DNA from: an uncultured bacterium
Lineage (GTDB): Bacteria; Krumholzibacteriota; Krumholzibacteriia; LZORAL124-64-63
Assembly (NCBI GenBank): GCA_963727525.1
Contig: CAVSGO010000006.1
Span: 192,001 to 256,000, forward strand
Reading direction: 5' to 3'
DNA length: 64,000 nucleotides
The notes beneath the pieces are model-generated. The model was not told the DNA's origin, made no database searches, and saw only the letters and a program-made list of their open reading frames with translations. Position 1 is the stretch's first letter. Every line of letters starts with the position of its first letter. Positions 23,252 through 30,007 of the stretch are shown here, one piece after another. The translations under genes and the position numbers were made by a program.

Positions 23252-24274
23252 GTGGAGCAGCGGCCAAGCAAGATCCTGATCGTCGACGACTCGAACCTGG
23301 ACCTGCGGGTCCATGCGGCGACGCTGCATGCCAAGGGGTACGAGATCGTCACGGCCACCAGTGGCGAGGAAGCGCTGCTGCTGGTCGAGGTGACGGTGCC
23401 TGATCTCTTCCTCATTGCCGCCAAGATGCAGAACATGGACGGCTTCACGCTCTGCGAGCGCCTCAAGGAAGACGCCCGCATGATCAACGTGCCGGTGGTC
23501 TTCATCACGGCCGATCCCACACCCGAGGACATCGATCGCGGCTACGCGGCCGGCGGCGTGGATTACATCGCCAAGCCCTGTCACCTGAGCGAGTTCCTCG
23601 CGCGCGTGTCCACCCACATCCGGCTCTACCAGGCCTTGCAGGACGTGGCGCGTCTCCAGGACCAGGCGATGGACAAGAACCCGCTCACGCACCTGCCGGG
23701 CAACAACTCCATCCTCGCGCAGATCCAGGAGGCCATCGACTCCCGCGCGGCCCGGACCGTGATCTACGCCGACCTCGACAACTTCAAGGCCTACAACGAC
23801 TACTTCGGCTTCTCGGCGGGCGACGACATGCTGCTCTTCACGGCCGAGACACTGCAGACGGCGATTCGCCTCGTGTGCAAAGGCGAAGAATTCCTCGGCC
23901 ACATCGGCGGCGACGACTTCGTGGTCATGGTCGACGACGACGTGGCGCCGCAGCTCGCGACGGAGATCGTGCGGCTCTTCGACGCCGGCGCGCCCAACTT
24001 CTATCGAGATGCCGACATCGCGCGCGGTTACATTGAGAGCACCGACCGCACAGGCGCCATTGCGCGCTTCCCGATCGTCTCGCTATCGATGGGCGGCGTG
24101 CAGTTGCGTTCGCACAACTTCACGCGCTTCCTCGAGGTGGCCAGCGTATGCGCCGAGGTGAAACACATGGCCAAGGCCATTCCCGGCAGTAATATCTTCA
24201 TGGATCGCCGCGGCCTCTCCGACGCCCTCATCGATCTTCCGCGGCCGACGTCGACTCACACCTCCGACGACTAG
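23252..24274 (+). CDS. Receiver-GGDEF protein with atypical receiver
   Basis: ILIVDD...KP receiver; NPLTHLPGN, DLDNFKAYND, HIGGDDF. Confidence 0.85.
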   Translation: MEQRPSKILIVDDSNLDLRVHAATLHAKGYEIVTATSGEEALLLVEVTVPDLFLIAAKMQNMDGFTLCERLKEDARMINVPVVFITADPTPEDIDRGYAAGGVDYIAKPCHLSEFLARVSTHIRLYQALQDVARLQDQAMDKNPLTHLPGNNSILAQIQEAIDSRAARTVIYADLDNFKAYNDYFGFSAGDDMLLFTAETLQTAIRLVCKGEEFLGHIGGDDFVVMVDDDVAPQLATEIVRLFDAGAPNFYRDADIARGYIESTDRTGAIARFPIVSLSMGGVQLRSHNFTRFLEVASVCAEVKHMAKAIPGSNIFMDRRGLSDALIDLPRPTSTHTSDD

Positions 24275-25662: not shown

Positions 25663-26200
25663 CGGGGTCTCCCTCCTCGACCCGGACGAAGAGCGCCTCG
25701 ATGTCGGCGCTGCGCAGACGGATGCAGCCGCCGCTCATGGGCCGGCCCAGGTCGGACTCGTGGTTGGTGCCGTGCAGGTAGATGAATCGCGTTCGAGAGT
25801 CGACGCCGGTCCCGCGGTTGATGCCATCCTCGCAACCATCGAGGGTGAGAATGCGCGTGAGGATGAGATCGCCGTCGTTTCGCGTGCCGGGGCGCCAAAC
25901 CTCGCCGGTGGGCTCGCGCGACTCGAAAACCGCGAAGCGCGGCGCGTCGGCGCCGATGCGACGGGCGATGTGGTGAAGGCCCGGGGGCGTGCCGCCGCTG
26001 CCCTCGCGCGCGTCGACGCCGGCCCGCGCGGTGCTGCAGGGCCAGCGCCCGGCCGCCGCGCCATCGCGCACCAGGGTCACCGTCTGGCTGGCGACGTCGA
26101 CCAGCAGCCAGCGGGCCGGCGCGCGTCCGAGGCGGTCGGCGAGTATCGCCGCGTGGGCTGCCACCTGGGCCGCCGTGGGGGTATGAGCTGGCTCTTGCAT
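25649..26200 (-). CDS. YkuD-domain protein without signal peptide (ElsL-like L,D-carboxypeptidase/transpeptidase)
   Basis: IYLHGTN...SGGCIR catalytic His/Cys; TPPGLH, ILTRILTL. Confidence 0.85.
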   Translation of the reverse strand: MQEPAHTPTAAQVAAHAAILADRLGRAPARWLLVDVASQTVTLVRDGAAAGRWPCSTARAGVDAREGSGGTPPGLHHIARRIGADAPRFAVFESREPTGEVWRPGTRNDGDLILTRILTLDGCEDGINRGTGVDSRTRFIYLHGTNHESDLGRPMSGGCIRLRSADIEALFVRVEEGDPVVIA

Positions 26201-26360
26201 GTGCGGGAGGGTACACCCGGTTCCGGCGGTGGGCAACGTCCGGACGCCTGGCGGCCTTGCGATCGCCCGGGTGAGTTACCACTATTTCAGAGGATGTGAT
26301 ATTGCTAACAACCAGCAGTGCGGGCAACGTCGGATTCCGCAAAGCCTGAGGAGCTTGATC

Positions 26361-28583
26361 ATGTTCGACATTGGTGGTGCGCTCGACCGTCAGATCAAGC
26401 AGTTCATGAAGAACCGGCCGACGATCCTGTTCATCGAGCCGGAAGACTACCGAGTGCTCGAGGCTGCGTTCTCCCTGCCGCAGGTTGCGGGCGTGGTGTT
26501 CCTGGCGACGCGGGAGCGCGTGGCCGAGGTCATCGCGCGCGAGCTGCCGCACAAGGACCCGGTCAGCGTCGAGTTCCTGCTGGGCGAGAGCGCGTTCTGC
26601 CCCATCGATGGGCATCCCGAGCTGGTGGACGAGTTCGCGCAGGCGATCATGGCGCTTCCGCCGGAGCGTCGCTGGACCGACGAACCCGCCGAGGCGCGCC
26701 GTCTGGCCGCCACGCCGGCCGGCTTCGGCATCATGGCGGTGCACGAGGGACATGCCGACATCGTGGTGGGCGGCGCGGCGCACGAGCCGCGCGACTACTT
26801 CCGACCCATGATCAAGATACTGAAGGTGGACGAGGTCGTCTGTGAGGCCGGCGTCTTCGTGTTGCCCGACAGCCACCCCGGCAATATCTACCCGCACAAT
26901 ATCCTGGTGATGGGCGACGTGGGTGTGAATGCCGCCGTCACCCCCGAGATCCTGGCGCGCAGCGCGGTGGGCGTGTGCGCGGTGGCGCGCGACTTGATCC
27001 CGGAAGAGGTACTGCCCACGATCAACGGCGCCATGGTGAGCTATTCCAATCGCGGCAGCGACGAGGGGCCGAGCCCCGAACTGGTGCGCCAGGCGGCCGC
27101 ACTCGTGCCCGAGTACCTGAAGCAGCGCATCGCACGCGGCGAGCGATACCGGTCGATCGAGATCGTGCCCGAGGTGAAGATCTCGGTGGCCCTGTCGGCG
27201 CGTTCGGCACACCTGTACCGGCGCGGCAAGCAGCGCGAGGACTTCCACGGCACGAACGCGGTCATCACGCCCAATCTCGATACCGGCAACCTGTTGTTTC
27301 ATCTTTTCAGCACGCGCTACCCCGACGCCAAGAAGTTTGGTGCCCTCTTCGGCATCCGCTTCCGCGGCGTGGATCTGCCCATGGACGTGCTGCCCGAGGA
27401 CGCGGCCCTGGCCGTGAAGGCCGCCGTCCTGCGGCTACACCGTTTTGGCGAGTGGACACGCACGCCACGTGACACCTTCTTCCCGAGGCCGCGAATCCTG
27501 GCCATCAACCCGGGATCCACCAGCACCAAGCTGGCGATCTTCGAGGGCGAGGAGGAGATGGTAGCCGAGGAACTGCAGCACAGCGCCGACGAGCTGCTGC
27601 CCTATGAGGGGCAGCGCATCGTGGCGCAGTTCGGGTTCCGCAAGGAGGCCATCACCGCATTCCTGGCGGCCCACGACCTGTCGCTGGCCGACATCGACGC
27701 GGTGAGCGCGCGTGGCGGTCTGGTGCAGCCCATCCCCCACGGCACCTACGCGGTGAACGATCGCATGCGGGAGGACCTGCTCGGTGGCACGGCCACCGAC
27801 CATGCCTCGAACCTGGGTGCGCTGATCGCGCAGGAGCTTGTCAGCGGCACCGACAAGCCGGCGTACATCACCGATCCCGTCGTGGTGGACGAGATGAATC
27901 CGCGCGCGCGTATCAGCGGCATGAAGGAATTGCCGCGGGTGCCCATCAGCCACGCGTTGAATCAGATCGCCACGGCGCACCGGTTCGCGCGCGAGCAGGG
28001 CACGTTCTACGAGCACCTCAACCTCATCGTATGTCACATGGGCGGCGGTATCTCGATCGGCGCGCACAAGAAGGGGCGCTACGTCGACGTGAACAATGCT
28101 CTCGATGGCGAGGGCCCGTTCTCGCCGCAGCGTTCTGGCTCGCTGCCGGTGGGGCCGCTGATCCGGCTGTGCTTCAGCGGCAAGTACACGCAGGAGCAGC
28201 TCCTGGTCCTGAACAAGGGGCGCGGCGGACTGATCGATTTGCTCGGCACCGCCGACTTCAAGCTCGTGGAGTCGAAGGTGAAGGAGGGCGATGCCGAGTA
28301 CAGTCTGGTCTTCGGGGCGATGTGCTACCAGATCGCCAAGACCATCTGCTCCATGGCGCCGGCTTTCGACGGGGAGTCGGTGGACCAGATCCTGCTCACT
28401 GGCGGGATGGCGCGGTCGCAGCTCCTGGTGGACTCGATCCACAAGCTGCTCGGTCCGCGCTGTGCCGGCCTGACCGTCTACCCGGGAGAGAACGAGATGG
28501 TGGCCCTGGCGCTGGGCGCGCTGCGGGTCCTGTCGGGTCGCGAGCCGGTGCGGCACTATGCGCCGGAGAGCCAGGAAGGATAA
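26361..28583 (+). CDS. buk: Fusion of a phosphotransacylase-like domain and butyrate kinase
   Basis: N-terminal PTA fold (FIEPEDYRVL, MVSYSNRGS, PNLDTGN); C-terminal INPGSTSTK, HASNLG, HMGGGIS, PGENE. Confidence 0.9.
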   Translation: MFDIGGALDRQIKQFMKNRPTILFIEPEDYRVLEAAFSLPQVAGVVFLATRERVAEVIARELPHKDPVSVEFLLGESAFCPIDGHPELVDEFAQAIMALPPERRWTDEPAEARRLAATPAGFGIMAVHEGHADIVVGGAAHEPRDYFRPMIKILKVDEVVCEAGVFVLPDSHPGNIYPHNILVMGDVGVNAAVTPEILARSAVGVCAVARDLIPEEVLPTINGAMVSYSNRGSDEGPSPELVRQAAALVPEYLKQRIARGERYRSIEIVPEVKISVALSARSAHLYRRGKQREDFHGTNAVITPNLDTGNLLFHLFSTRYPDAKKFGALFGIRFRGVDLPMDVLPEDAALAVKAAVLRLHRFGEWTRTPRDTFFPRPRILAINPGSTSTKLAIFEGEEEMVAEELQHSADELLPYEGQRIVAQFGFRKEAITAFLAAHDLSLADIDAVSARGGLVQPIPHGTYAVNDRMREDLLGGTATDHASNLGALIAQELVSGTDKPAYITDPVVVDEMNPRARISGMKELPRVPISHALNQIATAHRFAREQGTFYEHLNLIVCHMGGGISIGAHKKGRYVDVNNALDGEGPFSPQRSGSLPVGPLIRLCFSGKYTQEQLLVLNKGRGGLIDLLGTADFKLVESKVKEGDAEYSLVFGAMCYQIAKTICSMAPAFDGESVDQILLTGGMARSQLLVDSIHKLLGPRCAGLTVYPGENEMVALALGALRVLSGREPVRHYAPESQEG

Positions 28584-28585
28584 CG

Positions 28586-29506
28586 ATGACGCCGATTCGC
28601 ACTCTCGACCAGCTCGTCGCCAGCGTCAAGGGTCAGCCCTCGCGCCGTGTGGCCGTGGCGGCGGGACACGATCCCAACACCATCCAGGCCGCGGCGCGCG
28701 CGGCGCAGGAAGACATCGCCGTCGTCACCCTCGTGGGCGACGCCTCCCGCATCGCGGCGTTGTGCCGGGAGCACGGTCTGGACGCCGGCGTGTTCACGAT
28801 CGTCGACGAGAAGGACGAGGCGAAGGCGGGCGCGGAGGCGGTGCGGCGCGTGCGCGAGGGCGAGGCCGACGTGCTCATGAAGGGGCTCATCGGCACCGAC
28901 AAGTACATGCGCCTGATCCTGGACAAGGAACGCGGTCTGCTGCCGCCGAAAGCCGTGCTCAGTCACGTGACGGTGCTCGACATCCCGGCCTACCAGAAGA
29001 CCCACGGCAAGCTGCTCTTCGTGGCGGACGTGGCCATCATCCCCGATCCCGACCTGGCCACCAAGGTGCAGATCGCGCAGTACGTGATCGACGCCGCCCA
29101 CGCCTTCGGCATCCCCGAGCCGCGGATCGCCCTGGTGGCGGCCACCGAGAAGGTGAACCCGAAGATGCCGGCCTGTGTCGACGCGGCTCTCATCACGCAG
29201 ATGAATCGGCGCGGCCAGGTCAAGGGCGCCATCGTCGACGGACCACTCGCGCTGGACGTGGCGCTCAGCCCCGAGGCTTGTAAGATCAAGGGATTGACGA
29301 CCCCGGTCGATGGCGCGGCTGACGGTCTCGTGTTCCCTAACATAGAGAGTGGCAACGTCTTCTACAAGTCGGCCACGGTGTTAGGCGGTGCGCGGCTGGC
29401 GGCCGCGGTGATCGGCACCACGGCGCCGTGCGTCCTGACCAGCCGGGCCGACGATGAGGAGAGCAAGTTTCTGTCGATCGCTCTGGGGTGCCGTCTGGCC
29501 CGCTGA
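28586..29506 (+). CDS. ptb: Phosphate butyryltransferase
   Basis: ADVLMKG, DGPLALDVA, PNIESGN, LTSRAD. Confidence 0.9.
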   Translation: MTPIRTLDQLVASVKGQPSRRVAVAAGHDPNTIQAAARAAQEDIAVVTLVGDASRIAALCREHGLDAGVFTIVDEKDEAKAGAEAVRRVREGEADVLMKGLIGTDKYMRLILDKERGLLPPKAVLSHVTVLDIPAYQKTHGKLLFVADVAIIPDPDLATKVQIAQYVIDAAHAFGIPEPRIALVAATEKVNPKMPACVDAALITQMNRRGQVKGAIVDGPLALDVALSPEACKIKGLTTPVDGAADGLVFPNIESGNVFYKSATVLGGARLAAAVIGTTAPCVLTSRADDEESKFLSIALGCRLAR

Positions 29507-29653
29507 TGCGCGCCGTCCGGCGCGGAAAAAGATTCAAAAAACCGCTATAAAACTGCGGTATTTTGTGGCCTTCGCGACCGGATCGCGCTATCGTTCGCGA
29601 TGGCATGGAAGCCAAGTGCCAGCGACCTCAGCATTAAAAAGGAGAGAACGCCC

Positions 29654-30007
29654 ATGGCTAAGAAGGCTGCGAAGAAGGCTGCGAAGGCGCCCGCGAAGGC
29701 TGCGTCGGTGAAGGCCCCGACCCGCAACGAAGTCTACCGCGACATCGCCGCGAAGACCGGTCTAACCCGCAAGGACGTCGTCAAGGTGTGCGACGCCCTG
29801 AGCAACTCCATGGTCCAGTCGGTGAAGAAGCACGGCAATTTCAACCTGCTGGGCCTGATGAAGCTCACGCTGGTCAAGAAGCCGGCCGTGGCCGGTGGCA
29901 AGCTCGTGCGCAATCCGTTCACCGGCGAGATGGTGAAGCAGAAGGCCAAGCCGGCGTCGCGCTCGGTTCGTGTGCGTCCGCTGAAGGCCATCAAGGATCG
30001 CCTCTAG
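29654..30007 (+). CDS. HU-family DNA-binding protein with Lys/Ala-rich N-terminal tail
   Basis: RNPFTGE arm, KPASRSVRVRPLK; AAGGAG RBS. Confidence 0.9.
   Translation: MAKKAAKKAAKAPAKAASVKAPTRNEVYRDIAAKTGLTRKDVVKVCDALSNSMVQSVKKHGNFNLLGLMKLTLVKKPAVAGGKLVRNPFTGEMVKQKAKPASRSVRVRPLKAIKDRL

Follow-up and report, generated by a model that had tools for sequence, protein, structure and literature searches.

A butyrate kinase fused to a remodelled phosphotransacetylase-type domain beside a separate ptb gene in an uncultured Krumholzibacteriota bacterium

In a 64,000-nucleotide (nt) stretch of DNA from an uncultured Krumholzibacteriota bacterium (GenBank assembly GCA_963727525.1, contig CAVSGO010000006.1, positions 192,001 to 256,000; hereafter the window), a butyrate kinase (Buk) is fused in frame to an N-terminal domain of the phosphotransacetylase (PTA) fold, in which the catalytic Ser-Arg pair of phosphotransacetylases (Pta) is replaced by Pro-Met, and the gene is followed by a separate gene for a phosphate butyryltransferase-like protein (Ptb) that keeps the pair (Table 1). 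An uncultured family that is widespread in sediment and water metagenomes thus carries a kinase with a conserved and apparently dead transacylase domain. We tentatively favour the reading that this pseudo-Pta domain stems from an older Pta-Buk fusion and may now act as an assembly module tying Ptb to the kinase, a proposal drawn with limited confidence from sequence comparisons and structural models. Ptb-Buk and Pta-Ack, the textbook routes of substrate-level ATP formation, are usually each regarded as two enzymes that are free of one another, and separate ptb-buk gene pairs occur in Clostridium acetobutylicum, Listeria and Bacillus.

A conserved fusion of a Pta-type domain and a butyrate kinase

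On the + strand of the window a frame is open from 26199 to 28583, including the TAA stop codon (28581-28583). The ATG at 26361 was taken as the start because the N-termini of homologs and a GAGGAG site fit it; M1 is invariant among the homologs in the alignment of the fusion family (A4), and the alternative start at 26199 was ruled out by homolog N-termini, which begin MFDI or MYDI. A scan of the locus gave no promoter-like site, and three terminator-like sites where 2.1 were expected. The sequencing runs listed for it included no RNA run and one DNA run, which shared a small part of its words (0.08).

Table 1. Features of the fusion gene and ptb (positions in the window)
Feature	Position	Strand	Remarks
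Shine-Dalgarno-like GAGGAG	26348..26353	+	7 nt 5' of the fusion-gene ATG; direct reading
Fusion gene, 740 amino acids (aa) + stop	26361..28583	+	Pseudo-Pta domain joined to butyrate kinase; open reading frame (ORF), Pfam, NCBIfam, homologs, AlphaFold2
N-terminal PTA-fold domain, aa 1-372	26361..27476	+	Pta-type, not Ptb-type, active site remodelled; Pfam, family profile, Foldseek
Codon of Pro143	26787..26789	+	Equivalent to Ser128 of M. thermophila Pta and Tyr576 of MaeB
Codon of Lys273	27177..27179	+	Equivalent to Gln244 of M. thermophila Pta and Gln683 of MaeB
Codons of Pro340-Met341	27378..27383	+	In place of catalytic Ser309-Arg310 of Pta
Interdomain junction, aa 361-378	27441..27494	+	...W.RTP.DTFFPR.R..., conserved in alignment A4
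Butyrate kinase domain, aa 376-740	27486..28580	+	TIGR02707; Foldseek to Buk2
AGGAAGGA, ribosome-binding-like site for ptb	28573..28580	+	Inside the last fusion-gene codons; direct reading
ptb, phosphate butyryltransferase-like, 306 aa + stop	28586..29506	+	Pfam PTA_PTB, 161 bits
Codons of catalytic Ser286-Arg287 of ptb	29441-29446	+	Within ...VLTSRADDEE

An earlier, sequence-only reading had described a single 740-aa ORF with an N-terminal PTA-fold domain in frame with a complete butyrate kinase, and the ORF, Pfam and NCBIfam results agree with it. Pfam PTA_PTB (PF01515) matches aa 12-327 with 62.2 bits (cut-off 24; profile positions 7-289 of 319), Pfam Acetate_kinase is also matched, and NCBIfam butyr_kinase TIGR02707 reaches 449.8 bits (cut-off 289.1) over aa 378-730, covering profile positions 1-349 of 351. 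The phosphate loop N383-PGSTSTK-390, which we take to be the ASKHA phosphate-1 motif, has N383, P384, G385, S386, T387, T389 and K390 invariant in 46 sequences, and Foldseek matches the modelled C-terminal half to Buk2 of T. maritima (1x9j/1saz; 50% identity, TMt 0.86-0.88). Judged by profile score, loop and predicted fold, the kinase half qualifies as a member of the butyrate kinase family. The N-terminal half, by its PTA_PTB score and its Foldseek matches to Pta and MaeB PTA chains (TMt 0.71-0.81), belongs to the two-lobed PTA_PTB fold family.

The two halves meet in a conserved junction, where F373 is invariant and W365, R367, T368, P369, D371, T372, F374, R376 and R378 are nearly invariant in alignment A4. 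An AlphaFold2 model of the full-length protein, built from a 46-row alignment, has a mean predicted local distance difference test (pLDDT) value of 86.0 and a predicted template modelling score (pTM) of 0.84; so high a pTM for a two-domain protein suggests that the domains are held in a fixed mutual orientation, in line with the junction from W365 to R378.

A word-indexed protein search returned 913 proteins at E <= 0.001, and the statements on close homologs made here cover the best 120 of them, which are all 732-748 aa long, at least 63% identical and matched by both Pfam domains. Their sources are assemblies in NCBI, JGI, ENA and Logan, and databases label these fusions plainly 'butyrate kinase' wherever a name is given. 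When species-representative genomes were scanned with the N-domain as query, the same continuous frame was found at 34 loci in independent assemblies, most of them labelled Candidatus Krumholzibacteriota or Krumholzibacteriia and one Holophagales. Of 86 further genomes in the window's own family, 82 gave the N-domain, with frames of about 740-800 aa open in most of them, and the four in which it was missed are 59-81% complete; among 114 genomes drawn from another eight families in the phylum, none gave it (E <= 1e-20 with the window's query). The assembly error that the sequence-only reading had allowed for is therefore not what was found, since the fusion recurs across independent assemblies and across the family. 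Constraint was compared in 116 of the 120 sequences, four having been dropped where the junction pattern missed them: 99 of 373 N-domain columns are at least 98% conserved (mean pairwise identity 0.69), as are 132 of 363 columns of the kinase half (0.73), hence by alignment the N-domain is under a constraint almost as strong as that on the kinase.

One genome locus (L009) is labelled Breznakiellaceae (Spirochaetota), yet its N-domain is identical to that of P0005, a protein of the Krumholzibacteria-type clade; besides two such fusions (C149, C104), the bin concerned (G202) contains a canonical Pta and, where a contig starts, a Ptb-like gene, and it may be mixed or mislabelled.

Replacement and fixation of active-site residues

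For residue mapping, a profile of 11 family members was aligned to five solved Ptas. Against PDB sequences the profile matches Ptas most closely (9.3e-42 to 6.5e-34, best 6iow at 9.3e-42), while the Ptb 7vg9 follows at 1.9e-05, and its consensus 'dlsrdSsved' aligns onto the Pta motif 'DLSRGCSxED'. At this column the window reads D338-L339-P340-M341-D342...E346-D347, which bears out the statement of the sequence-only reading that the Ser-Arg pair is lost in the fused domain (RGVDLPMD), and nowhere else in the C-terminal part does a Ser-Arg pair line up with the catalytic motif. That the pair is catalytic in Pta, as was stated there, is in agreement with the literature: in the M. thermophila enzyme, kcat is strongly affected when Ser309 and Arg310 are replaced, the effect of Arg87 and Arg133 is mainly on Km, and Asp316 is the proposed base (PMC6461089, PMC9706017).

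Besides Ser309 (Pro340), Arg310 (Met341) and Gly311 (Asp342), the window's domain has replaced Ser128 (Pro143), Gln244 (Lys273), Tyr282 (Phe313) and Lys283 (His314) of M. thermophila Pta, and it has kept Arg133 (Arg148), Asn279 (Asn310) and Asp316 (Asp347). Gln244 of Pta contacts CoA from the partner subunit of the dimer (PMC9706017). The domain thus shares with the class I Ptas of M. thermophila (1QZT/2AF3) and P. gingivalis (6IOW/6IOX), its closest solved sequences, the fold and the equivalents of Asp316, Asn279 and Arg133, but it differs from them in the equivalents of Ser309, Arg310, Ser128 and Gln244 and reaches only 52.2 bits against the Pta equivalog TIGR00651, under the cut-off of 311.2.

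Positions 340/341 read Pro-Met in 115 of the 120 close homologs, Ala-Met in three, and Ser-Met and Thr-Met in one each, so that Met341 is present in all 120. Together with the window, the close clade comprises 121 rows, and Pro143, Lys273, Met341, Asp342, Arg148, Asn190, Asn310 and Asp347 are each found in 121/121. Because the replacement residues are themselves fixed across the close clade, the alignment indicates a former site that was rebuilt and then frozen, not one that is decaying.

Ser-Arg-keeping relatives, linkage to ptb and order of change

Searched with HMMER against 1.84 billion protein representatives, the N-domain gave 34 clusters below 1e-30, comprising further fusions of about 720-750 aa and some stand-alone forms of about 370-395 aa, while canonical Ptas enter the list only from about 1e-13. 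Among these the Ser-Arg pair is kept in the distant fusions P0126, P0134, P0137 and P0141 and in the stand-alone proteins P0132 and P0167. A metagenome scan seeded with such Ser-Arg-keeping sequences found 18 loci, of which 14 were analysed and four (L057-L060; 1.0-3.6 kb with partial matches) were dropped; the 14 consist of nine fusions with D[FY]SR at the motif, three stand-alone forms of 391 aa, one Ala-Met fusion (L055) and one Ala-Arg fusion (L056). The sequence-only reading had proposed that conservation of the Ser-Arg loss be examined across homologous fusions, and the outcome is divided, as the pair is replaced in all 120 close homologs and kept in several distant fusions of about 730 aa.

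The Ser-Arg-keeping fusions (P0137, L043-L050) and stand-alone proteins (L052-L054, P0132, P0167) belong to the same Pta-like family as the window's domain, their N-domains being 33-39% identical to it (tblastn), and the fusions resemble the window's protein in length (about 730 aa) and in having a comparable junction. They differ in keeping Thr or Ser at the position of Ser128 as well as Gln244, Ser309 and Arg310, and in having no second PTA-family gene nearby. The Pfam PTA_PTB match (109-169 bits in the fusions, 77 bits in the stand-alone L052) runs through profile positions 312-315 in these relatives and ends at 289 of 319 in the window. The kinase phosphate loop is intact in eight of the nine D[FY]SR fusions and degenerate in L051. 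To judge from these residues, Ser-Arg-keeping Pta-Buk fusions are presumably true bifunctional enzymes.

At position 143 the close clade has Pro in 121/121 rows, and Thr or Ser stands there in 16/18 Ser-Arg-keeping rows and 7/7 Ptas; at position 273 it has Lys in 121/121, compared with Gln in 18/18 Ser-Arg-keeping rows and 7/7 Ptas. As the groups were defined by positions 340/341, only the co-variation at 143, 273 and 342 is independent.

The window's ptb begins 2 nt after the stop codon of the fusion gene, and since AGGAAGGA falls within the last fusion-gene codons, the two genes are probably translationally coupled. The sequence-only reading had the downstream Ptb retain LTSRAD, and it does, with S286, R287 and D289 invariant in 23 sequences; the same arrangement, a Ser-Arg pair with an Asp two residues on, is found as Ser279, Arg280 and Asp282 in CaPTB (PMC9706017). 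It is clearly related to phosphate butyryltransferases, which lead the matches that bear a name (E 1e-89 to 4e-93), but it stays below equivalog level both with NF004472 (311.7 bits; cut-off 399) and with TIGR02706 (300.6 bits; cut-off 410.5), which makes its acyl specificity putative.

A ptb start lies 5-234 nt 3' of the fusion in 26 of the 28 close-clade genome loci that could be assessed (six of the 34 end too early). No second PTA-family gene was found at any of the nine Ser-Arg-keeping fusion loci (E <= 1e-5, 0.6-6 kb on each side), a result with which a Pfam scan of the neighbours agrees at five of the nine; these loci represent about six distinct lineages and include three near-duplicate pairs. 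The Ala-Met fusion L055 has ptb downstream. In L056, the Ala-Arg fusion, ptb (L056:5072-6003) lies upstream and overlaps the fusion gene as TAATG. Its product is 35% identical to the window's Ptb, while the Buk half of L056 is 56% identical to the window's, and because Ptb is elsewhere as conserved as Buk (about 69% vs about 66% within the close clade), this suggests a second, separate recruitment of ptb. The linkage as a whole points to complementation of a lost transacylase by Ptb.

In a quick IQ-TREE tree of 44 hand-picked rows (the window, 10 of the 120 close homologs, L009, seven other altered rows, 18 Ser-Arg keepers and seven Ptas as root), with support by the Shimodaira-Hasegawa-like approximate likelihood ratio test (SH-aLRT) only, the Ser-Arg keepers form a basal grade and all 19 altered rows one clade (SH-aLRT 99). 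Because the basal fusions of about 730 aa keep Ser-Arg, the loss of the pair is derived and confined to one clade, and it does not belong to the fusion as such. Inside the altered clade the substitutions look stepwise: at positions 143, 273, 340, 341 and 342, P0121 has Pro, Gln, Ser, Lys and Glu, P0124 has Pro, Gln, Ala, Arg and Asp, L056 has Pro, Lys, Ala, Arg and Asp, L055 has Pro, Lys, Ala, Met and Asp, and the close clade has Pro, Lys, Pro, Met and Asp.

Several other members of the wider family were noted. L051 (6001-8187), P0126, P0141 and P0134 keep Ser-Arg and have a degenerate kinase loop (for example ...TIDPVMCCTE... or ...TVNTARDSTH... vs INPGSTSTK) with a weak or absent Acetate_kinase match, and may be mirror-image fusions in which the kinase half is dead. 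The stand-alone 391-aa genes L052-L054 (6001-7176) lie directly 3' of three 2-oxoacid:ferredoxin oxidoreductase genes (POR_N, TPP_enzyme_C, POR) and 5' of smpB, a place behind oxidoreductase genes that would be fitting for an active transacylase (L052). In P0147 (905 aa) a partial PTA_PTB domain of this family occurs together with Aldedh, a 4Fe-4S dicluster and a BMC shell domain; the protein represents either merged gene calls or a microcompartment-linked member, and hints at one branch in a bacterial microcompartment locus. A look-up of the N-domain of P0137 in the Atlas returned generic PTA_PTB clusters only (scores 0.90-0.91).

Candidate roles of the altered domain

On the favoured reading, the locus would be a two-gene module for substrate-level phosphorylation, in which Ptb converts a short acyl-CoA (butyryl- or branched-chain) and phosphate to the acyl-phosphate, and the Buk domain uses the latter to form ATP, or in which the pair runs in reverse for acid activation. 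The ancestor, as the Ser-Arg keepers suggest, would have been a single-chain bifunctional Pta-Buk. In one lineage a separate Ptb would have come to lie beside the fusion and the fused transacylase site would have been remodelled, with the changes Ser128 to Pro, Gln244 to Lys, Ser309 to Pro, Arg310 to Met and Gly311 to Asp becoming fixed and the separately encoded, coupled Ptb supplying the transacylase activity. The dead domain would have been kept because it still folds, retains the face by which PTA-fold proteins dimerise and joins the kinase through a conserved junction, and this face would most likely hold Ptb or a second copy of the N-domain, so that transacylase and kinase form one assembly.

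The docking of Ptb by the N-domain is a prediction from modelling. The N-domain (aa 1-372, 46-row alignment) and Ptb (23-row alignment) gave a complex score of 0.73 (runs 0.73, 0.70 and 0.73), while the best of three controls scored 0.00; among solved complexes 116 of 157 reach the score mark, against 2 of 215 among mismatched pairs, a calibration that is only rough for the custom alignments used here. The runs share at least 94% of their contacts, with partner pLDDT values of at least 90. The predicted contacts fall on the classical dimer face of the PTA fold (residues 303-319, 226-228, 273-275, 341-342, 143 and 188 of chain 1), with P143, G188, K273, N310, H314, M341 and D342 among them. The mean top-residue frequency of this interface is 0.925, compared with 0.762 in the rest of the domain, in a set of residues that includes core and former active-site positions. 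The idea, raised in the sequence-only reading, of a scaffold that docks Ptb is thus favoured by the contrast with the controls, but the score may come from likeness to PTA homodimers.

A number of points weigh against this reading. Both chains are PTA folds with solved homodimers, hence the passing score may echo those homodimers, and it does not separate an N-domain:Ptb pairing from an N-domain:N-domain pairing. We infer the loss of catalysis from residues, and as the domain retains Asn310, Arg148 and, in Asp347, the equivalent of the proposed base, some ligand binding or an altered chemistry is possible. In L009 and L040 the fusion is altered and no ptb lies nearby; the two bins carry a Ptb-like PF01515 match on another contig. 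The Ser-Arg-keeping fusion loci are metagenome contigs, and those organisms may have a Ptb elsewhere. The tree is a quick one of selected rows, and as its altered rows form one clade, the association of the loss with ptb rests on few independent events.

Next to an assembly role, with which it is compatible, stands a MaeB-like allosteric sensor, a reading that we consider possible though somewhat unlikely. The dead domain would bind CoA or acyl-CoA and, through the junction, tune ATP formation by the kinase to the acyl-CoA/CoA ratio, in analogy to MaeB (B. bacteriovorus Bd1833, E. coli; PDB 6ZNG, 6ZNT, 9KRW), where a PTA fold that is not a transacylase is fused to another enzyme. The sequence-only reading had drawn this parallel, and it stands as far as the non-catalytic PTA domain of MaeB senses acetyl-CoA (PMC7902834), but the deviations of MaeB lie at the equivalents of Asp316 and Ser128 and not at Ser-Arg; the fused domain of the window has lost Ser309/Arg310, Ser128 and Gln244. 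Acetyl-CoA is contacted in MaeB by R535/K538, R581, N616 and N718 (PMC7902834). R581, N616 and N718 correspond to Arg148, Asn190 and Asn310, all fixed in the close clade, and Arg148 is not conserved in the Ser-Arg-keeping relatives, which together with the conserved junction would fit a sensor. The Foldseek comparison of the N-terminal half also leans this way, with TMt values of 0.79-0.81 to MaeB PTA domains (6zne 0.81) vs 0.71-0.79 to active Ptas (P. gingivalis Pta 6iox 0.75), although the difference is small. Against a sensor, the equivalents of the 3'-phosphate contacts R535/K538 are only partly basic (Arg at 104 in 64/121 rows and at 105 in 67/121), and the surroundings of the acyl pocket are altered (Y721 to Phe, K722 to His, Q683 to Lys). 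The hexameric ring and C-terminal placement of MaeB have no parallel here; the window's domain is N-terminal and sits on a kinase that uses the transacylase's own product. The sequence relation is weak (E 1.8e-08), and while hexamer and acetyl-CoA binding are known for MaeB, the window's domain is known from sequence and models.

Another reading, which we regard as unlikely, takes the domain for a structural relic that only homodimerises and is kept for the fold or oligomer of the kinase, making no contact with Ptb and binding no ligand. PTA-fold enzymes do oligomerise by the same face, as seen in the dimers and octamer of CaPTB (PMC9706017) and the hexamer of the MaeB PTA domain (PMC7902834), the modelled N-domain:Ptb interface is this very face, and the junction is conserved in the Ser-Arg keepers too. 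However, P143, K273, M341 and D342 are each invariant in the close clade, beyond what fold or oligomer alone would demand, and ptb is tightly, probably translationally, coupled to the fusion in two gene orders.

A more elaborate version of the docking proposal, which appears quite unlikely in its full form, is a pseudo-Pta:Ptb heterodimer mounted on the kinase, in which the invariant Lys273, Met341 and Asp342 would lie at the common interface, adjoining the Ptb active site, and would complete or gate it, and the dead cleft would bind CoA or acyl-CoA, giving a ligand-regulated metabolon that channels labile acyl-phosphate directly to ATP synthesis.

It is improbable that the fused domain is still an enzyme performing transacylation or a related acyl transfer with other residues or on another substrate, in which case the locus would encode two transacylases of different specificity. 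The proposed base is kept as Asp347 in every row of the close clade, the replaced residues are strictly conserved, and Ptbs use another base position than Pta (PMC9706017), all of which would suit an active site. Yet four positions that are invariant in the seven Ptas, and in all or 16 of the 18 Ser-Arg keepers, were lost jointly, a separate intact Ptb is linked to the fusion at nearly all assessable loci, and the C-terminal catalytic part lies outside the Pfam profile match. An assembly or gene-calling artefact joining two genes has a negligible probability, given the continuous frame at 34 genome loci, the frames of about 740-800 aa in most of 82 genomes and the four source databases.

Compared with the known ptb-buk pairs, the locus likewise has the two activities, here predicted ones, in adjacent genes, with a kinase half close to Buk2 of T. 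maritima (1SAZ/1X9J) and a Ptb that, like CaPTB, has Ser-Arg and an Asp two residues later (PMC9706017). It departs from them in that their Buk proteins measure about 355-375 aa and have no PTA-fold extension, whereas here a 372-aa pseudo-Pta domain precedes the kinase and ptb follows buk. In the literature searched, which did not extend to subscription journals and supplements, neither a natural Pta/Ptb-Buk fusion nor this pseudo-domain is described; it also gave no assay of or paper on the Ser-Arg-keeping fusions, and at listing level no description linking Krumholzibacteriota and butyrate. In PMC2700814 buk and ptb appear only as separate genes, next to a mention of the MaeB domain. Non-catalytic use of the PTA fold is a concept already known from MaeB, and its buk-fused variant is undescribed in that literature. 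Should docking or sensing be correct, the fusion would be a second independent non-catalytic re-use of the PTA fold after MaeB and a naturally occurring example of enzymes coupled physically around a labile intermediate, the acyl-phosphate. Fusions that keep Ser-Arg are possible compact parts for pathway engineering, from acyl-CoA to ATP or from acid to acyl-CoA, and the series of forms would offer a traceable stepwise path from enzyme to pseudoenzyme.

The genome of the window (4.66 Mb) has four PTA-fold genes, among them a canonical pta directly upstream of ackA (G000:C7:2015354-2017532) and a MaeB-type PTA match (C5:201571-202518); a second acetate kinase is encoded at C5:410518-411663. Because it also encodes an adjoining 3-hydroxyacyl-CoA dehydrogenase and acyl-CoA dehydrogenase and has three 2-oxoacid:ferredoxin oxidoreductase matches, both straight and branched short acyl-CoAs are plausible candidate substrates. 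The neighbours of the locus are unrelated to it: a divergently oriented YkuD transpeptidase and Mur ligase lie upstream, and an HU-like protein and an ABC-F ATPase downstream. The HU-family protein (29600-30007, +; Bac_DNA_binding aa 41-135) has a Lys/Ala-rich N-terminal extension of about 40 residues. A response regulator-GGDEF fusion at 23252-24274 (+) matches only positions 5-92 of 161 of the GGDEF profile, and its cyclase domain may be truncated or degenerate.

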